DNA of 32,000 nucleotides from Nitrosopumilus ureiphilus (GCF_013407185.1 NZ_CP026995.1:1868954-1900953); one strand, 5' to 3'. Shown: positions 4,327-15,483, counted from the stretch's first letter. Numbers and translations: made by a program. The notes: generated from the letters alone by a model not told the origin.

Positions 4327-5016
4327 TTATTGGATCTCTAAAATTCCATGAGTAATCAAGTATTGGATTCCCTGAATGAATGCCACATCATCTATTTGTC
4401 CATCAGCCCACCATCCAGCATTATTCTTAATCCATGATGGAATCCCACTTCCAGATGATTCTCCTGATTCTGTTTGAGGAATAGTCATAATATTCTCAAT
4501 AATCAAGTATTGGATTCCCTGAATGAATGCCACATCATCTATTTGTCCATCAGCCCACCATCCAGCATTATTCTTAATCCATGATGGAATTTCAGATTCC
4601 GTTGAAAATGTATTTAATGCATCGGTTCCTATAATATCAATTACTGAATCACCAGAAAAAAATGGAATTACAAGTGTTCTAGAATTTGAATTTGAATTTA
4701 TTTCTGCATAATCAGTTTCAAAGCCATCAACTAAAATGAAAAATACATCATCTGACGTATCAAATTTTGCATCTAATAGATTCCTTGGAATAGTAATTTC
4801 AATAGTCCCATCAGATGTCGTATCCATTGTTATGATTAATTCAATAAAATCAGGATCTAAGAAGATCGATTCAAGAATCCCATTTTCAATATTATAATCA
4901 ACATCAAACGAATCAACAGAAACAGAACCTATCTCACCAAAAGAGAAAGAAGGAAATGAAAACAAAAGAATTGAAAAAATGAAACCGTATAAGAAAAATT
5001 TATTTTTCGTGATCAT
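4327..5016 (-). CDS. secreted protein with two C-terminal copies of a ~35-aa 'IPSWIKNNAGWWADGQIDDVAFIQGIQYLI' module
   Basis: 229 aa with an N-terminal signal/anchor (FFLYGFIFSILLFSFPSFSFG). It has two identical C-terminal modules and starts 2 nt downstream of the preceding secreted-protein gene. Confidence 0.7.
   Translation of the reverse strand: MITKNKFFLYGFIFSILLFSFPSFSFGEIGSVSVDSFDVDYNIENGILESIFLDPDFIELIITMDTTSDGTIEITIPRNLLDAKFDTSDDVFFILVDGFETDYAEINSNSNSRTLVIPFFSGDSVIDIIGTDALNTFSTESEIPSWIKNNAGWWADGQIDDVAFIQGIQYLIIENIMTIPQTESGESSGSGIPSWIKNNAGWWADGQIDDVAFIQGIQYLITHGILEIQ
4353..4590. repeat. perfect 91-bp direct repeat (4353-4443 and 4500-4590), offset 147 nt, inside the CDS
   Basis: The two copies are identical base for base on reading. 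They encode the duplicated WW-module. The offset of 147 nt equals 49 codons. Confidence 0.9.
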
Positions 5017-9106: not shown

Positions 9107-9547
9107 TCAGGGATAATATTCACTTAATACCACTGATTTAGATATTCGATTAGAATTACTTGTAATCTTACCTTGATGTAAAGCATCAGTAACTACTTTC
9201 ATCAAAATTGTACGGTTCATAGGTTTTGAAATAAAGCTAAAGGCACCTAATTTCATCAGATAATTGATTGTGGTTTGATCATCTTTCCAAGCACTAATCA
9301 TAATCACTCTTGTATCCTTATCATTTTTTCGAATATATTCTAAAACTTTTGAACCATCAAGATTTGGCATCACATAATCCAATAAAATCAAATCCGGCCG
9401 ATATTTTACATATAACTTTAATCCCTCTACTCCATCTTTTGCTTCACAAATTCGAGCAAGTCGTACAGATTTCTTAATTATATCATGACAAAATGATCTA
9501 AATACTTTAGAATCGTCAATTATTAAAATAATCGGATATTTTCGCAT
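9107..9547 (-). CDS. stand-alone response-regulator receiver domain (CheY-like)
   Basis: 146 aa with ILIIDDS, the phospho-acceptor context DLILLDYVMPNLDG, VIMISAW and FISKP. It has no output domain and there is no adjacent kinase. Confidence 0.85.
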   Translation of the reverse strand: MRKYPIILIIDDSKVFRSFCHDIIKKSVRLARICEAKDGVEGLKLYVKYRPDLILLDYVMPNLDGSKVLEYIRKNDKDTRVIMISAWKDDQTTINYLMKLGAFSFISKPMNRTILMKVVTDALHQGKITSNSNRISKSVVLSEYYP

Positions 9548-10164: not shown

Positions 10165-10365
10165 TTAATCTAATTTTACAATTCCTTGTTGAACCAAGTA
10201 TTTGATTGCATTAAGCAATTCATTCTCTGAAACTTGATCTTGTCCATACCATACAAAGATGTTCTTTACCCACTCGGGAATTTTAGATGATGATTTACTT
10301 TCCAAATTTCCATCATAATCTCTATGCCCCTTTGTGTTCCATACGAAGCAAGCTAATAGTTTCAT
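10165..10365 (-). CDS. small protein or fragment carrying one copy of the WW-module (IPEWVKNIFVWYGQDQVSENELLNAIKYLVQQGIV)
   Basis: 66 aa. The C-terminal 38 aa align with the duplicated module of 4327-5016. It has no signal peptide, so it may be a remnant. Confidence 0.45.
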   Translation of the reverse strand: MKLLACFVWNTKGHRDYDGNLESKSSSKIPEWVKNIFVWYGQDQVSENELLNAIKYLVQQGIVKLD

Positions 10366-10454: not shown

Positions 10455-10595
10455 CTAGTGATCTTTTTCTTTAGCATTGGCTATTAGATTCTCCAATGCA
10501 TGTGAACGGTTGGCAAACCTTTTCTTCTTGATTCCATCGTCAATCCATTTTATAAGATCCGCATCAATTGACACTGAAAATTTCTCCTTCTTCAC
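10455..10595 (-). CDS. ribbon-helix-helix (CopG/Arc/MetJ-type) DNA-binding protein, GTG start
   Basis: 46-aa ORF below the ORF-track cutoff, translated by hand as VKKEKFSVSIDADLIKWIDDGIKKKRFANRSHALENLIANAKEKDH. It shows the classic beta-strand plus two-helix pattern and is a paralogue of 14785-14922. Confidence 0.6.
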   Translation of the reverse strand: MKKEKFSVSIDADLIKWIDDGIKKKRFANRSHALENLIANAKEKDH

Positions 10596-10772: not shown

Positions 10773-10952
10773 ATGAGCAATTCTAAAAGAGATACTGAGG
10801 AAGAGGTTTTAGGACCATTAGTAGAGGTGGAATGGAAATTCAAGTTGGACAAGACTATCTACAGAGAGTATCTCACTATGGAGCAATATGAGAACCTTAA
10901 GGAGATTCCGATAGTAAAATACTGCAAAATTATTGATGAAAAAAGATATTGA
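10773..10952 (+). CDS. hypothetical 59-aa protein
   Basis: Hand-translated ORF (MSNSKRDTEEEVLGPLVEVEWKFKLDKTIYREYLTMEQYENLKEIPIVKYCKIIDEKRY). A TTTTTATAAA TATA-like box lies ~65 nt upstream. Confidence 0.3.
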   Translation: MSNSKRDTEEEVLGPLVEVEWKFKLDKTIYREYLTMEQYENLKEIPIVKYCKIIDEKRY

Positions 10953-11594: not shown

Positions 11595-13145
11595 CTAACC
11601 AACTTTAACAAATTTTCCTACAGACGGAACATCATTCCCGTCAAGAATGAATAACATGTAATACCCCGGAGGCGCAAATGTGTTATTTTTTGGACTAGAT
11701 ACGGTCAAGATATTTGCTGTTTGATTTATAATTGGCAACATAAGACAGCGTTGATCCATATTGTTGTTGTGTGTTGTAGATGATATCTTTATCAAAGAAA
11801 CTTTTTGAATACTTGATGCATCATCTGTATGTATTTCATAATTATTATTGTAAGACATTGTAGGTAGTTCTATATCCTGAATTTTGGGTCTTGTAGGATT
11901 ACATTGTAGTTTTGGAGGAGTTATAATTTCAATATTGTGCTCAAAATTCTCTTTTGGTGCAAAAACGGATCTTACCCAATTATGACCTGTACTTCCAGCA
12001 ACCACTACTTCTCCACTTGGTAAAAGAACTGCAGAACCATGGTACAGCCTATCTCTTTTTAGATATGACACAACTTTCCATGTTTCATTACGTGGATCAA
12101 ACAAGTGAACTTCCCTTACTGCAATATCATTATCATCAGCTTGTCCTTTTGCAGCACCATTTGTAACTAAAACTGTCCCATCAGGTAAAAGTATGGAATC
12201 ACACAAAAAGCGGCGTATATGTTCAGTTGTTTTTTTCCAACCTGAAGAATTAGCAGGATTATTTAGATCAGCTGTAAATATTTCGGGAGTTTGTGTTGCA
12301 TCTGTATTTTTATCAGGATGTAACTTGGTACTTCCACCAACAAGTAGTATCTTGGCAGTATCTGTTTCATGTTCAAGGGGTAAAAGTACACAGGAGCCCA
12401 TTCCAGGATATGTTCGGGTTCCTGGAGTTTCTGTTTTAAATTTGGCATCAGTAATAAATTTTTTTTCTGCAATATTCCAAATATGTGTAGTTTCTTCTGA
12501 ATGCACAAAAAGAGTTCCACCCGGCAAAACCTGCAAAAATGGATACATTTTGATTTCATCAATAAACTTTACAGGAGTTGAGAGTTTATTGGCTACAGGA
12601 TCAAATATCTCATAATCTAAATTCATGGCACCAAATAATGCATGATGTGCATGTGAATACGTGCCTGATACTATCAATGCTTTGCCATCAGGTAATGTAA
12701 CACATGTGGGATACCATCTTGCTTTTGGCATTCCTGGTTTGTATCTTTGCCATCGTTGATTAGGATCAATATCGGGATTAGGATCAAAAGTATGAATATC
12801 ATGATCTGCTGCAGGTTTTTTTATAATTTTTAACACTAATTGCAGAAATCCTGGTAGAGACAATACAATTGTTGCAGGATGATTATATGTGGACTGGCCA
12901 CCTGCAACAAACAATCGTCCATCCGGAAGAAAACAATGACCAGAACAAAACAAATTCCTTCCTAGTTTTGGATTAATTGGATTACGTGGATCTTCAGGAT
13001 CCCATAGACTAGATTCACCTTTTGTCCAGTTCCAAATATTTTCATGATCACCAGAAAACAACAATACTTTTCCAGTTCGTAAAAGTGCTAGATGTACAGC
13101 TATGGATTCTACTTCATATGTAGCATTCTGATGATCTATTTCCAT
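11595..13145 (-). CDS. copper radical oxidase (galactose oxidase / glyoxal oxidase-like; Kelch beta-propeller plus C-terminal E-set domain)
   Basis: 516 aa. Family ligand contexts are all present: FCSGH (Cys of the Tyr-Cys cofactor), ARWYPT, RLYHGS and TTHNNNMDQR. No N-terminal signal peptide. The start overlaps the tyrosinase stop by 10 nt. Confidence 0.85.
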   Translation of the reverse strand: MEIDHQNATYEVESIAVHLALLRTGKVLLFSGDHENIWNWTKGESSLWDPEDPRNPINPKLGRNLFCSGHCFLPDGRLFVAGGQSTYNHPATIVLSLPGFLQLVLKIIKKPAADHDIHTFDPNPDIDPNQRWQRYKPGMPKARWYPTCVTLPDGKALIVSGTYSHAHHALFGAMNLDYEIFDPVANKLSTPVKFIDEIKMYPFLQVLPGGTLFVHSEETTHIWNIAEKKFITDAKFKTETPGTRTYPGMGSCVLLPLEHETDTAKILLVGGSTKLHPDKNTDATQTPEIFTADLNNPANSSGWKKTTEHIRRFLCDSILLPDGTVLVTNGAAKGQADDNDIAVREVHLFDPRNETWKVVSYLKRDRLYHGSAVLLPSGEVVVAGSTGHNWVRSVFAPKENFEHNIEIITPPKLQCNPTRPKIQDIELPTMSYNNNYEIHTDDASSIQKVSLIKISSTTHNNNMDQRCLMLPIINQTANILTVSSPKNNTFAPPGYYMLFILDGNDVPSVGKFVKVG

Positions 13146-14365
13146 CGTCTTTTTGTAAATGGTGACAACAAAAATGCAGATGTTCTAGCAAGTGCAACAA
13201 ATGGGAGAACGATAGAATATTTCATGATTATTTTAAATGGTTTGTTTTTTCTCATTTGGTCTGCAATGGGAGGGGAAAATTTGTAGTAAATGTTCAAAAT
13301 AAATTCAAATGTTTTTTTGAATTTACTTTTTAATACAACATCATCTCTGAATTCTCGCAAAAACTGAACTGGTGGTTCTAATTCAGAACCATATGCTGCT
13401 GTTGCAATAAAACATCTTTGTCCTGAAGGATTAGGAGTTGGATTTGGAGAAGGGTTAGATATAGGCCATCCACTGCTTCCAGATACATCATCGTAAACAT
13501 AGTCTAGGGCTTCAATATCTAAAACATCTCTTGGTCTTCGTATGTCTGATGCGTCAATTGAGGGCAACAATGGCGTTGCATTACTTATGTTAGTAAAAGA
13601 GTCCCCTCCATCCCATGGCCACATTCTATCATCTAATTTGTGACCGACATTACCTGTATTGTTGGGATTATAGTTATCAGTTCCAGGATGAGTCAGTTGC
13701 CATTTTGCCCAAAGCCTGTCAATATTTGCATGGTGTAAAAAGAAGATAGGATCATTAGGCGAGGTCATTCGGGTCATATGTCCTCCAACTCTCATGTGGA
13801 CAGTTCCATGAGGACCTTCCAATGCAGGTCTAAAACCATGGAAGTTATTTTCATTAAGGGAATTATTTGCCTCAGTTGCAGGAAGTGTTGAAGGATTCAT
13901 GCTATTGTTTCGAAGTAGTGTGGTTCCATGATTACCCTGATCAAGTTGTGGATCTACTTGCCATCCATCAGGGTTTTGTGGTGTTGGAGCTTCAGAAAGA
14001 TATCCTGAAGTTTGCAATCCCATGGTACCCAAAAAATCAACAGTAAAGACATCATCAGTATCAGATGAAACTCCAGATTCCCACTTCCAATAGGGTAAAG
14101 AAACATCAGGATCTACTTCCTGCAGTGCCTTTTCAAATCTTAAGATGAATTCTCTATGCCATGCAAGAAATGCAGGACCGCCATGTCCGCCGTCCCCACT
14201 GGCTGCACCCAGTCTGCTAATAACACCATAATGAATTGCAACAAACTCATCATATACATTAGTAGTGTGCCCAGGTTTTACAGTCTTCTTTAGTGTGATT
14301 ATTGCATTCATGAGTTTTGCTTTATCTGGGGCAGGCAATGTTGCAGCATTTCGTCTTGTATGCAT
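13136..14365 (-). CDS. tyrosinase (type-3 dicopper oxidase) with Pro/Asn linker and C-terminal CFIATAAYGS module plus hydrophobic tail
   Basis: 409 aa. CuA: IHYG...HGGPAFLAWHREFILRFE. CuB: HGTVHMRVGGHM...DPIFFLHHANIDRLWAKWQ. Linker SNPSPNPTPNPSGQR, then CFIATAAYGSELEPPVQFLREFRD and a hydrophobic C-terminus. Confidence 0.85.
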   Translation of the reverse strand: MHTRRNAATLPAPDKAKLMNAIITLKKTVKPGHTTNVYDEFVAIHYGVISRLGAASGDGGHGGPAFLAWHREFILRFEKALQEVDPDVSLPYWKWESGVSSDTDDVFTVDFLGTMGLQTSGYLSEAPTPQNPDGWQVDPQLDQGNHGTTLLRNNSMNPSTLPATEANNSLNENNFHGFRPALEGPHGTVHMRVGGHMTRMTSPNDPIFFLHHANIDRLWAKWQLTHPGTDNYNPNNTGNVGHKLDDRMWPWDGGDSFTNISNATPLLPSIDASDIRRPRDVLDIEALDYVYDDVSGSSGWPISNPSPNPTPNPSGQRCFIATAAYGSELEPPVQFLREFRDDVVLKSKFKKTFEFILNIYYKFSPPIADQMRKNKPFKIIMKYSIVLPFVALARTSAFLLSPFTKRRWK

Positions 14366-14565
14366 TAGCTGTTTTCTCCTTCATCTATGATTGATTTTGC
14401 AAGATCTTCCAGTGTAGAAAATTCTCGATAAGGTAAAACATCATATGCAAAATATTTTTTTGTGTCATCATCAAAATTGCATTGTATTTTTTCATCATCA
14501 ATATACAAGACATTTGTATCATATTCAGCTTTGATTATTTTGTTCTTGTAAGATTCTGATGACAT
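14365..14565 (-). CDS. small acidic Tyr-containing protein, first gene of the copper-oxidase cassette
   Basis: 66 aa. Its stop overlaps the tyrosinase start (TAATG). No motif recognised. The position is analogous to tyrosinase helper ('caddie') genes, with no sequence similarity claimed. Confidence 0.5.
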   Translation of the reverse strand: MSSESYKNKIIKAEYDTNVLYIDDEKIQCNFDDDTKKYFAYDVLPYREFSTLEDLAKSIIDEGENS

Positions 14566-14660
14566 AATTTAGTAGAGTATGACTGTAATACATAAGGATT
14601 ATGCAATTCAAGGAAAATCATATTTATTTGTTTATTACCCATCACAAAATAATAACAAGA

Positions 14661-14741
14661 CAAACAGGATAACAAAACCTGTTACAATTAGTTGAGAGTT
14701 CAAACCTGTTGAGGTTTGGTTGTACGAGTCTCGAGGTTTGT
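14661..14741. promoter_or_regulatory. cluster of palindromic/half-site motifs upstream of the copper-oxidase cassette
   Basis: AACAGG-N9-CCTGTT (14663-14683); a perfect 18-bp palindrome CAAACCT-GTTG-AGGTTTG (14701-14718); and a third AGGTTTG at 14734-14740 next to the palindrome CGAGTCTCG. The cluster lies 100-175 nt upstream of the ATG at 14565. Confidence 0.45.
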
Positions 14742-15483
14742 TAAAATGAAATGTTTAGAATAAAAATGAAAATTTAATTTTTACTTATCCCTCATCCATT
14801 AATTTTTGAATAGCATATTGAATACAATGCGATCTATTTGCAAATATTCTTTTTTCAATTTTTTTGTCTATCCACTCAAGTTGATCTTTTTCAAGTGCTA
14901 TACTTACAGGGTTTTTTTCCATTTTTCATAATTCCATCATTGAATTATGAATGATTAATTTCTAGTAACATTTAACTAGTATTAATAATTATTAATATTC
15001 ATTAATAATGGTTAATAATCAATATGATGAAAATGAGATGAAAAAGAAACATTTGGAATTGGAAATTAGACTAAAAGAATTTTTCAAAAATTACAAAACT
15101 CATTCTGAGAGACTCTCTAAAAATCAGTGATCATAAGATATCTTCAAAAAATTATTCCACAACATTTTCTATCTATGAAATCACAAAACGAGCTTTGTTT
15201 ACAGAGTTCATTATGAATGAAGATGAATCAGAAGGAATCATAATTTGTGAGAAATGTATGACAATATGGAAAAATTATTATGAATATTTATCAAAACACT
15301 TTGAGAACATAATTTTATATTTTAGATTGGAAAACATTCATCATAATCAGGCATAGGATTTATGAAAATCGTTCTCATGTTATTTACAGAGTTCTTCATT
15401 TTAGAATTACGATATCCAAAAAACCAGAATTTGTTCAAACCCTAATAGGTTTGGTTTAGTGAACCGTGGCAGGTTTGAACTCT
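14695..15483. repeat. 14-bp inverted repeat pair (AGAGTTCAAACCTG at 14695-14708; its reverse complement at 15470-15483) bracketing a 789-bp segment
   Basis: Exact 14/14 match read directly. A third partial copy, GTTCAAACC, at 15433-15441 forms CAAACC-N6-GGTTTG. The segment contains the RHH gene and short broken plus-strand ORFs. Confidence 0.6.
14785..14922 (-). CDS. ribbon-helix-helix (CopG-type) DNA-binding protein
   Basis: 45-aa ORF below the track cutoff: MEKNPVSIALEKDQLEWIDKKIEKRIFANRSHCIQYAIQKLMDEG. It shares VSI...WID...FANRSH with 10455-10595. Confidence 0.6.
   Translation of the reverse strand: MEKNPVSIALEKDQLEWIDKKIEKRIFANRSHCIQYAIQKLMDEG

Follow-up and report, generated by a model that had tools for sequence, protein, structure and literature searches.

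The stretch of Nitrosopumilus ureiphilus DNA analysed here (NZ_CP026995.1:1868954-1900953; 32,000 nucleotides, hereafter the window) carries on its minus strand a cassette of three overlapping genes, which are predicted to encode, from 5′ to 3′, a small caddie-like helper protein, a tyrosinase and a copper-radical oxidase (Table 1). Open reading frames (ORFs) were taken to start at the first ATG, GTG or TTG past the upstream in-frame stop codon, and the three ORFs obtained in this way had the coordinates given for them in an earlier reading of this DNA (the original prediction). The two stop/start overlaps reported there were likewise read in the sequence, and a GGAG lies approximately 11 nucleotides 5′ of the tyrosinase ATG. 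The 66-residue and 516-residue proteins are 100% identical to N. ureiphilus proteins, in agreement with the proposal that the host is an ammonia-oxidising archaeon, and the public record of the larger protein is named ‘glyoxal oxidase [Nitrosopumilus ureiphilus]’.

Table 1. Features of the cassette and its 5′ flank, in window coordinates.
Feature	Position	Strand	Description or evidence
Helper gene	14365-14565	minus	66-aa ORF
Tyrosinase gene	13136-14365	minus	409-aa ORF
Oxidase gene	11595-13145	minus	516-aa ORF
TAATG, stop/start overlap of helper and tyrosinase genes	14363-14367	minus	1-nt overlap; direct sequence reading
ATGGAAATAG, tyrosinase stop/oxidase start	13136-13145	minus	10-nt overlap; direct sequence reading
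CFI-box-CTERM domain, tyrosinase aa 318-409	13139-13414	minus	NF041770, 1.5e-21, 75.9 bits against a cut-off of 40
A+T-rich intergenic region 5′ of the cassette	14566-14784	minus	219 nt

None of the three products has an N-terminal signal peptide, as had been claimed. In the frame of each ORF there is no start codon upstream of the one assigned (the oxidase frame, read from stop to stop, contains 13 further residues with no start codon among them), so that no N-terminal signal peptide could be added. A missed upstream start was rejected for all three genes, because each already opens at the earliest possible start codon. The description of the cassette as lacking export signals stands for the N-termini; it does not stand for the C-terminus of the tyrosinase, which has a CFI-box-CTERM domain.

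The tyrosinase and the copper-radical oxidase

On the evidence of sequence alignment, the 409-residue protein is a MelC2-type tyrosinase with a complete set of catalytic residues. It matched the Tyrosinase family PF00264 at 6.6e-41 (141.5 bits, against a cut-off of 22.6) and the tyrosinases in the PDB at 2e-42 to 1e-39, the NCBIfam MelC2 model aligned to it residue 1 to residue 1, and it is 36% identical to Streptomyces MelC2, again aligned from the first residue. In that alignment both of the tyrosinase copper sites that had been proposed could be placed, with His45, His61, His70, His186, His190 and His212 falling in the ligand columns of the Streptomyces enzyme (His38, His54, His63, His190, His194 and His216, respectively). 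The Streptomyces residue His194, which thus corresponds to His190 here, is the one on which Tyr98 of the caddie stacks. The catalytic core occupies approximately residues 1–300 and is followed by a Pro/Ser-rich linker and the C-terminal CFI-box domain; some related archaeal tyrosinases have FN3 modules. The absence of a signal peptide had been thought unusual for both enzymes. To our knowledge, MelC2-type tyrosinases never have a signal peptide of their own, and the enzyme of the Streptomyces melD operon is intracellular, so that a signal-less tyrosinase is no anomaly; the oxidase, too, belongs to a clade without such signals (see below).

Expression of the tyrosinases of N. koreensis and N. 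salaria has yielded active enzymes (PMC5722948, PMC11608171). The former, Tyrosinase-CNK or NkTYR of Candidatus Nitrosopumilus koreensis, was expressed in E. coli and acts on L-tyrosine (PMC5722948), and by its description it resembles the present enzyme in having approximately 410 residues and an aggregation-prone C-terminal extension of approximately 110 residues. It was, however, studied alone as a biocatalyst, and neither a helper for the archaeal tyrosinases nor a CFI-box or an oxidase neighbour is mentioned in PMC5722948 or PMC11608171.

The NF041770 profile match that defines the CFI-box domain spans residues 318–385 of the tyrosinase. The domain starts with CFIATAAYGS and ends with a hydrophobic helix (residues 383–403) followed by KRRWK; the conserved motif, written as a consensus, is CFIATAAYGS...LR.FRD...YY.FSP, with an invariant Cys. 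A model of the domain has four helices, with a predicted local distance difference test (pLDDT) score of 87, and a fold search with this model found no relatives in the PDB. At E ≤ 1e-3 the CFI-box was matched in 11,868 cluster representatives. A hydrophobic terminal helix was present in 99 of the 150 best members and a hydrophobic N-terminus in 32 of 87 long members, and the CFI-box is joined for the most part to domains of extracellular kinds (subtilases, FN3, PKD, papain and matrixin). Tyrosinases, too, carry it, as does one oxidase of the present family (P0103), and this last case suggests a shared location for the two enzymes. The CFI-box may act as a membrane anchor at the C-terminus or as a signal for sorting, and in the cassette it is probably a membrane tether for the tyrosinase; our literature search found no published paper on it. 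Many of the extracellular-type enzymes that carry a CFI-box have no N-terminal signal peptide, and further CFI-box proteins are encoded at two of the loci described below (L038 6503-7987 and L036 2734-4872).

The 516-residue protein is predicted to be a GlxA-like copper-radical oxidase with a full set of ligands. It matched Glyoxal_oxid_N at 5.2e-23 (82 bits), GO-like_E_set at 6.9e-26 (90.9 bits) and Kelch_6 with 42 bits, an architecture of a kelch propeller and a C-terminal E-set domain that is shared with Streptomyces GlxA (SCO2837; PDB code 4unm), its best solved match at 2.4e-39. The Tyrosinase, Glyoxal_oxid_N and GO-like_E_set matches of the two enzymes all lie above the Pfam gathering scores. 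All four motifs on which the original prediction of an oxidase was based, FCSGH, ARWYPT, RLYHGS and THNNNMDQR, are found in the product and, as with the tyrosinase and its Streptomyces counterpart, alignment to GlxA places the ligand residues in catalytic columns. FCSGH aligns with the GlxA motif that holds the cofactor Cys, ARWYPT with the ARWYPT of GlxA (where the Trp column is fixed by the W288A variant entry, 5lxz), RLYHGS with RNYHSG, and STTHNNN with SASTHVT. Cys67, Trp144, Tyr145, Tyr368, His369 and His459 are invariant in the archaeal homologues, and we predict that they supply a Cys67-Tyr145 cofactor with the stacking Trp144 beside the cross-linked Tyr, the axial Tyr368, and the His residues 369 and 459.

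The oxidase nevertheless differs from GlxA in several respects. With the GlxA equivalog model NF052501 it scored 212 bits against a cut-off of 800, the best stretch covering model positions 271–644; it has no N-terminal membrane anchor; a region of approximately 100 residues between the first propeller blades is missing (residues 90–130 against 114–246 of GlxA); and beside the cassette there is no cslA-type glycan synthase, the neighbours being a response regulator, PdxS/PdxT, aconitase and small ORFs. On these grounds it is not a GlxA equivalog. Its N-terminus, MEIDHQNATYEV, sits at the first propeller strand, without any signal peptide or transmembrane anchor, and the nearest clade of oxidases, archaeal and Chloroflexi, is wholly without N-terminal signals, whereas more distant relatives have them. 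Our literature search found no paper on galactose or glyoxal oxidases in connection with ammonia-oxidising archaea, and none on an archaeal copper-radical oxidase.

The oxidases of the Nitrososphaeraceae type begin with His-rich tails, such as MSDNHHNGRHSHE and MNHHDNNDHNNNHD (genes starting at L009 5959-, L010 5410-, L031 2773-, L040 2588- and L041 4947-), which may bind metal; the oxidase of the window has only a short version (MEIDHQN).

The 66-residue helper

The original prediction could assign no role to the 66-residue acidic protein. Judged by its predicted structure, it is the counterpart of the Streptomyces caddie, MelC1, and we class it as a caddie-like tyrosinase helper of the NE1242 family. 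Pfam and NCBIfam scans of the protein gave sub-threshold noise only (DUF2442, ISP3_C and SAR2788). A profile built from its ten closest relatives matched PDB code 2jv8, an entry from Nitrosomonas europaea deposited as ‘uncharacterized protein NE1242’, at E = 1e-6, and a search with an enlarged alignment gave a family of 41 clusters, 64–85 residues long, in which Leu44-Pro45-Tyr46 and Ala56 are invariant. We found no published mention of NE1242 in our literature search.

The AlphaFold model of the helper (pLDDT 90.7) has seven strands and a C-terminal helix. When it was compared with the PDB using Foldseek, ranks 1–21 were all Streptomyces caddie/MelC1 chains, the best with a template modelling (TM) score of 0.83, a root mean square deviation of 1.9 Å over 65 columns and a probability of 1.00, and the matches past rank 21 had probabilities of at most 0.21. 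The sole solved sequence relative of the helper, 2jv8, was absent among the 50 Foldseek matches listed. In alignments made with the verified caddie sequence, hmmsearch and hhalign agreed on a register in which Tyr46 of the helper falls on Tyr98 of the caddie and the caddie segment EVYKGRRIQ pairs with ESYKNKIIK, and Tyr46 of the Leu-Pro-Tyr motif is proposed as the residue that plugs the tyrosinase active site. In the same alignment the residues with which the caddie transfers copper, His82, Met84 and His97, become Gln28, Asn30 and Pro45, and the His-rich loop of the caddie is missing. Unlike MelC1, the helper has no twin-arginine translocation (Tat) signal; it begins MSSESYKNK and has no earlier in-frame start.

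Because a protein with the MelC1 caddie fold is encoded directly upstream of a tyrosinase, the first two genes of the cassette form a melC/melD-like operon with a stripped-down caddie, which has neither a Tat signal nor the copper-transfer His and Met residues. The earlier view that no pathway could be named for the cassette is therefore mistaken for genes 1 and 2; it holds for the combination of a tyrosinase and a copper-radical oxidase, of which our literature search found no description. In Streptomyces melC (MelC1 and MelC2; PDB codes 1wx2 and 6j2u), as here, the helper gene lies directly 5′ of a signal-less MelC2-type tyrosinase, but the archaeal cassette differs in the CFI-box domain of its tyrosinase, in the oxidase as a coupled third gene and in its host. 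By analogy, the nearest described arrangement is Streptomyces melD (MelD1 and MelD2), in which the helper is without a Tat motif, its gene overlaps that of the enzyme, and the tyrosinase stays within the cell, with a proposed role in defence against phenolics (PMC2758597); likened in this way by description, melD is set apart by its much longer helpers and by the lack of a CFI-box and of a copper-radical oxidase partner.

In the genomic contexts fetched, helper genes of this family lie directly 5′ of a MelC2-type tyrosinase on both archaeal contigs (L015, L024, L004, L027, L033, L038 and L052) and bacterial ones (L017; L021/L022, from Nitrospira; L023; and L025/L094, from Nitrosomonas), the exceptions being two bacterial contigs on which the caddie-like gene is followed by a tyrosinase remnant of approximately 60 codons (L019 3006-3619 and L020 943-1547), an apparent decay of the partner enzyme. 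The bacterial tyrosinases beside the helper include a PPC domain, and no copper-radical oxidase neighbours them. NE1242 itself shares the Leu-Pro-Tyr motif and the position directly 5′ of a tyrosinase, but the genes that follow it differ from those of the archaeal cassette: in N. europaea (L094 6001-12216) the order is NE1242, tyrosinase-PPC, an animal-type haem peroxidase, a lipoxygenase and a second peroxidase. From gene content, then, the bacterial version would combine the tyrosinase with H2O2-using enzymes and the archaeal version with an H2O2-making one. The named members of the helper family all come from nitrifiers (Nitrosomonas europaea, N. communis, Nitrosomonas sp., Nitrospira sp. 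and Nitrosopumilus), although most of the members (P0001–P0041 and P0312–P0327) are unnamed metagenome sequences and a restriction to nitrifiers is unproven.

Linkage of the two enzymes and a possible mechanism

In order to place the oxidase in its genomic contexts, related oxidases were sought in one genome per species and then in metagenomes, and the loci were annotated using tblastn and hidden Markov models. A locus was counted as archaeal-type if its oxidase had at least 53% identity and its G+C content was low, and 23 such loci had a flank long enough to judge. A tyrosinase lay within approximately 3 kb of the oxidase at 16 of these 23 loci, some of the 16 being near-duplicates from related samples, and at none of approximately 45 loci of bacterial or more distant type, where the bacterial-type oxidases are single genes or tandem duplicates. 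In 11 of the 16 linked loci the tyrosinase is directly 5′ of the oxidase on the same strand, and in the other five (L009, L010, L029, L040 and L043) it is rearranged. The full trio is present in the window and on each of the seven archaeal contigs listed above, and at four of these (L004, L015, L027 and L038) the tyrosinase and oxidase genes also overlap, by 4–17 nucleotides. The recurrence of both gene order and overlaps at other archaeal loci, as the original prediction had anticipated, is more than chance would give, and the pairing of tyrosinase and oxidase is conserved in these archaea. Among bacteria, the nearest relatives of the archaeal oxidase are of Anaerolineae type (L006, L008 and L045–L048); they are tandem duplicates with no signal peptide and no tyrosinase nearby.

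From these features we infer a caddie-gated, membrane-associated tyrosinase that works beside an oxidase whose H2O2 primes it, a mechanism to which, as a whole, we give an even chance of being correct. The helper would dock on the newly made tyrosinase and insert Tyr46 into the substrate pocket, so that the dicopper site would be shielded and inactive until loaded with copper, and the first turnover would oxidise Tyr46 and free the helper. This is what is known for Streptomyces, where Tyr98 of the caddie sits in the tyrosinase pocket and its oxidation by the enzyme releases the caddie (PMC6312201). As the archaeal helper has no Tat signal and no equivalents of His82, Met84 and His97, it would serve as plug or chaperone only, not as an export vehicle and probably not as a copper donor. 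The CFI-box tail would then keep the tyrosinase at the membrane. The oxidase, made from the same mRNA, would oxidise an alcohol or aldehyde and reduce O2 to H2O2 next to the tyrosinase, where the H2O2 would turn the resting met form into the active oxy form, a conversion that is established for tyrosinases and abolishes the lag of the monophenolase activity (PMC11608171). Our best guess is that such a system would most likely serve to remove or cross-link phenolic and alcoholic compounds at the cell boundary.

The reverse influence is also conceivable, in that the tyrosinase or its quinone products may hold the oxidase in its radical state. Pairing of copper-radical oxidases with redox enzymes is seen in Streptomyces, where GlxA and DtpA are an oxidase–peroxidase tandem. 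Copper-radical oxidases require an oxidising partner, and a genetic pairing of this kind is known from fungi (PMC9770985, PMC12951238). The fungal AlcOx–peroxidase pair (PMC9770985) resembles the archaeal one in its genetic pairing of an oxidase with a second redox metalloenzyme, one that deals with the H2O2, activates the oxidase, or both; the archaeal partner, however, is a type-3 dicopper enzyme and not a haem peroxidase, and its functional coupling to the oxidase is inferred.

Ammonia-oxidising archaea are described in PMC6593220 as largely lacking catalase, and the original prediction had accordingly found a source of H2O2 paradoxical in such a host and had suggested several roles for the cassette; both the paradox and the roles remain speculation. 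Since H2O2 converts resting met-tyrosinase into the oxy form, the peroxide would be consumed locally and not released, and a local relay of this kind would ease the concern over an H2O2 source in these archaea.

A number of observations weigh against the proposed mechanism. Helper and caddie share weak sequence similarity (hhalign probability 35%, pairwise E value 4e-4), and PF06236, the Pfam model of MelC1, matched none of 11 helper-family members at E ≤ 10, which, together with the absence of a Tat signal, is why we call the protein caddie-like and do not count it as a member of PF06236. The terminal helix of the CFI-box domain contains a conserved Arg and has a Kyte–Doolittle mean of approximately 1.8 over 17 residues (a hand estimate), and a helix of such moderate hydrophobicity may pack on the domain without spanning the membrane. 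Finally, the helper is missing at ten tyrosinase–oxidase loci and the tyrosinase at seven archaeal oxidase loci, so that neither partnership is obligatory.

The loci without a tyrosinase would also suit a simple co-location of the two enzymes on one mRNA, brought about by a shared copper supply or by a membrane scaffold in the form of the CFI-box protein, with unrelated substrates and no H2O2 or redox cross-talk. This explanation gains from locus L036, where the oxidase follows, with a 4-nucleotide overlap, a 712-residue FN3 and CFI-box protein that is not a tyrosinase, and from the single or tandemly duplicated genes of the Chloroflexi relatives. The tyrosinase, however, stays adjacent where it has no CFI-box (L001, L002, L032 and L033) as well as in the five rearranged orientations given above, which indicates that the link is with the tyrosinase itself, and we regard co-location alone as unlikely.

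Also improbable, in our judgement, is a cytoplasmic detoxification like that of Streptomyces melD, in which all three proteins would remain inside the cell, the tyrosinase clearing phenolics that come in or form there (for example, nitrification inhibitors of plant or humic origin, or phenols that ammonia monooxygenase produces) and the oxidase the matching alcohols or aldehydes. The absence of a signal peptide from all three proteins is what it would lead one to expect. The helper has no Tat motif, like MelD1, the partner of which, MelD2, is intracellular and protective (PMC2758597); the nearest clade of oxidases is wholly signal-less, with His-rich N-termini common; and the named members of the helper family are all from nitrifiers. 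It sits poorly, however, with the FN3 modules of related tyrosinases, with the mainly extracellular-type partners of the CFI-box (subtilases, PKD and matrixins) and with a neighbouring CFI-box protein at L038 that has a clear signal peptide, and an internal source of H2O2 would be costly for archaea which, in the account quoted above, largely lack catalase (PMC6593220).

We see only a slim chance that the enzymes act on the envelope or a biofilm, the oxidase altering a surface glycan, as GlxA does in Streptomyces morphogenesis, and the tyrosinase cross-linking the tyrosines of surface proteins into a tanned matrix. GlxA is the closest solved relative of the oxidase, the FN3 and CFI-box modules point to a position at the surface, the host is from marine sediment and has candidate biofilm genes (PMC12448741), and an archaeal tyrosinase cross-links proteins in vitro (PMC11608171). 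Against this, neither a cslA-like glycosyltransferase nor any other envelope gene lies near the cassette, an export route for signal-less proteins is not known, and tyrosinase and galactose or glyoxal oxidase go unmentioned in the biofilm paper (PMC12448741). The reading that the original prediction had left open, that the small acidic protein is a substrate or precursor peptide matured by the two oxidases in a new pathway, is very improbable, for although the protein is made first and contains six Tyr residues, and the Tyr of the Streptomyces caddie is truly oxidised by tyrosinase (PMC6312201), it is a compact caddie-fold domain and not a leader-core peptide, and its family also occurs beside tyrosinases that have no oxidase partner.

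The proposed mechanism, in which the oxidase feeds H2O2 to a caddie-gated tyrosinase, can be carried further into a nitrifier module, although we give this extension no more than a small chance. A minimal caddie, a tethered tyrosinase and an H2O2-feeding oxidase would together clear phenols and primary (aryl) alcohols, and the CFI-box would be a new device by which enzymes without signals are placed at the membrane. Both compound classes are dead-end products that ammonia monooxygenase forms from aromatics and from alkyl groups in the co-oxidations of Nitrosomonas, and they also represent the chemistry of phenolic nitrification inhibitors. Ammonia monooxygenase makes hydroxylamine, which triggers the release of the caddie in vitro (PMC6312201) and could act as the activating signal in nature.

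What appears to be new is the assignment of the small protein and NE1242 as caddie-like, together with the conserved coupling of tyrosinase and oxidase in archaea and the signal-less clade of oxidases. A recent review gives a caddie for Streptomyces tyrosinases only (PMC11608171); the present assignment would extend helpers of the caddie type to archaea, Nitrosomonas and Nitrospira, and would supply a function for the solved but unannotated structure 2jv8. As the archaeal tyrosinases used in biocatalysis lack their natural partner, co-expression of the helper might alter their yield or activation. If the H2O2 relay is true, it would be a new mode of pairing two copper oxidases and would show how a peroxide-sensitive ammonia oxidiser affords a peroxide-making enzyme.

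Sequences flanking the cassette

The A+T-rich region 5′ of the helper gene presumably contains the cassette's own promoter, and a hairpin with a T-rich run, at 14709-14734, follows the gene upstream of it, which encodes a ribbon-helix-helix (RHH) protein. A scan for sigma-70 promoters gave counts equal to those in shuffled sequences, the sigma-70 model being inapplicable to archaea. Two RHH (CopG-like) ORFs of 45–46 residues, paralogues with approximately 40% identity, flank the cassette on the minus strand (14788-14922 and 10458-10595). They are present at no other related locus and so are probably not parts of the module, but may mark the edges of an inserted segment.

At several archaeal loci, a protein of 257–295 residues, hydrophobic in a segment at its N-terminus and helical over a long region, is encoded 5′ of the helper or the tyrosinase (L004 3209-3982, L002 3909-4739, L015 5183-5977 and L024 3968-4855; also L052). 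This membrane protein, which has no Pfam match, was not accepted as part of the cassette, as the window contains no homologue of it. On the 3′ side of the cassette there are a stand-alone response-regulator receiver and a small ORF (9107-9547 and 10773-10952), the latter weakly matching ‘Nitrosopumilus output domain 1’.

A motif of approximately 40 residues, IPEWVKN...ELLNAIKYLVQQGIV, closes a 66-residue ORF at 10168-10365 and occurs twice in the ORF at 4327-5016 (within 4333-4602). The same motif forms the C-terminus of the L033 tyrosinase (L033 4697-4819), and it seems to be a further C-terminal module exchanged among proteins of these archaea.

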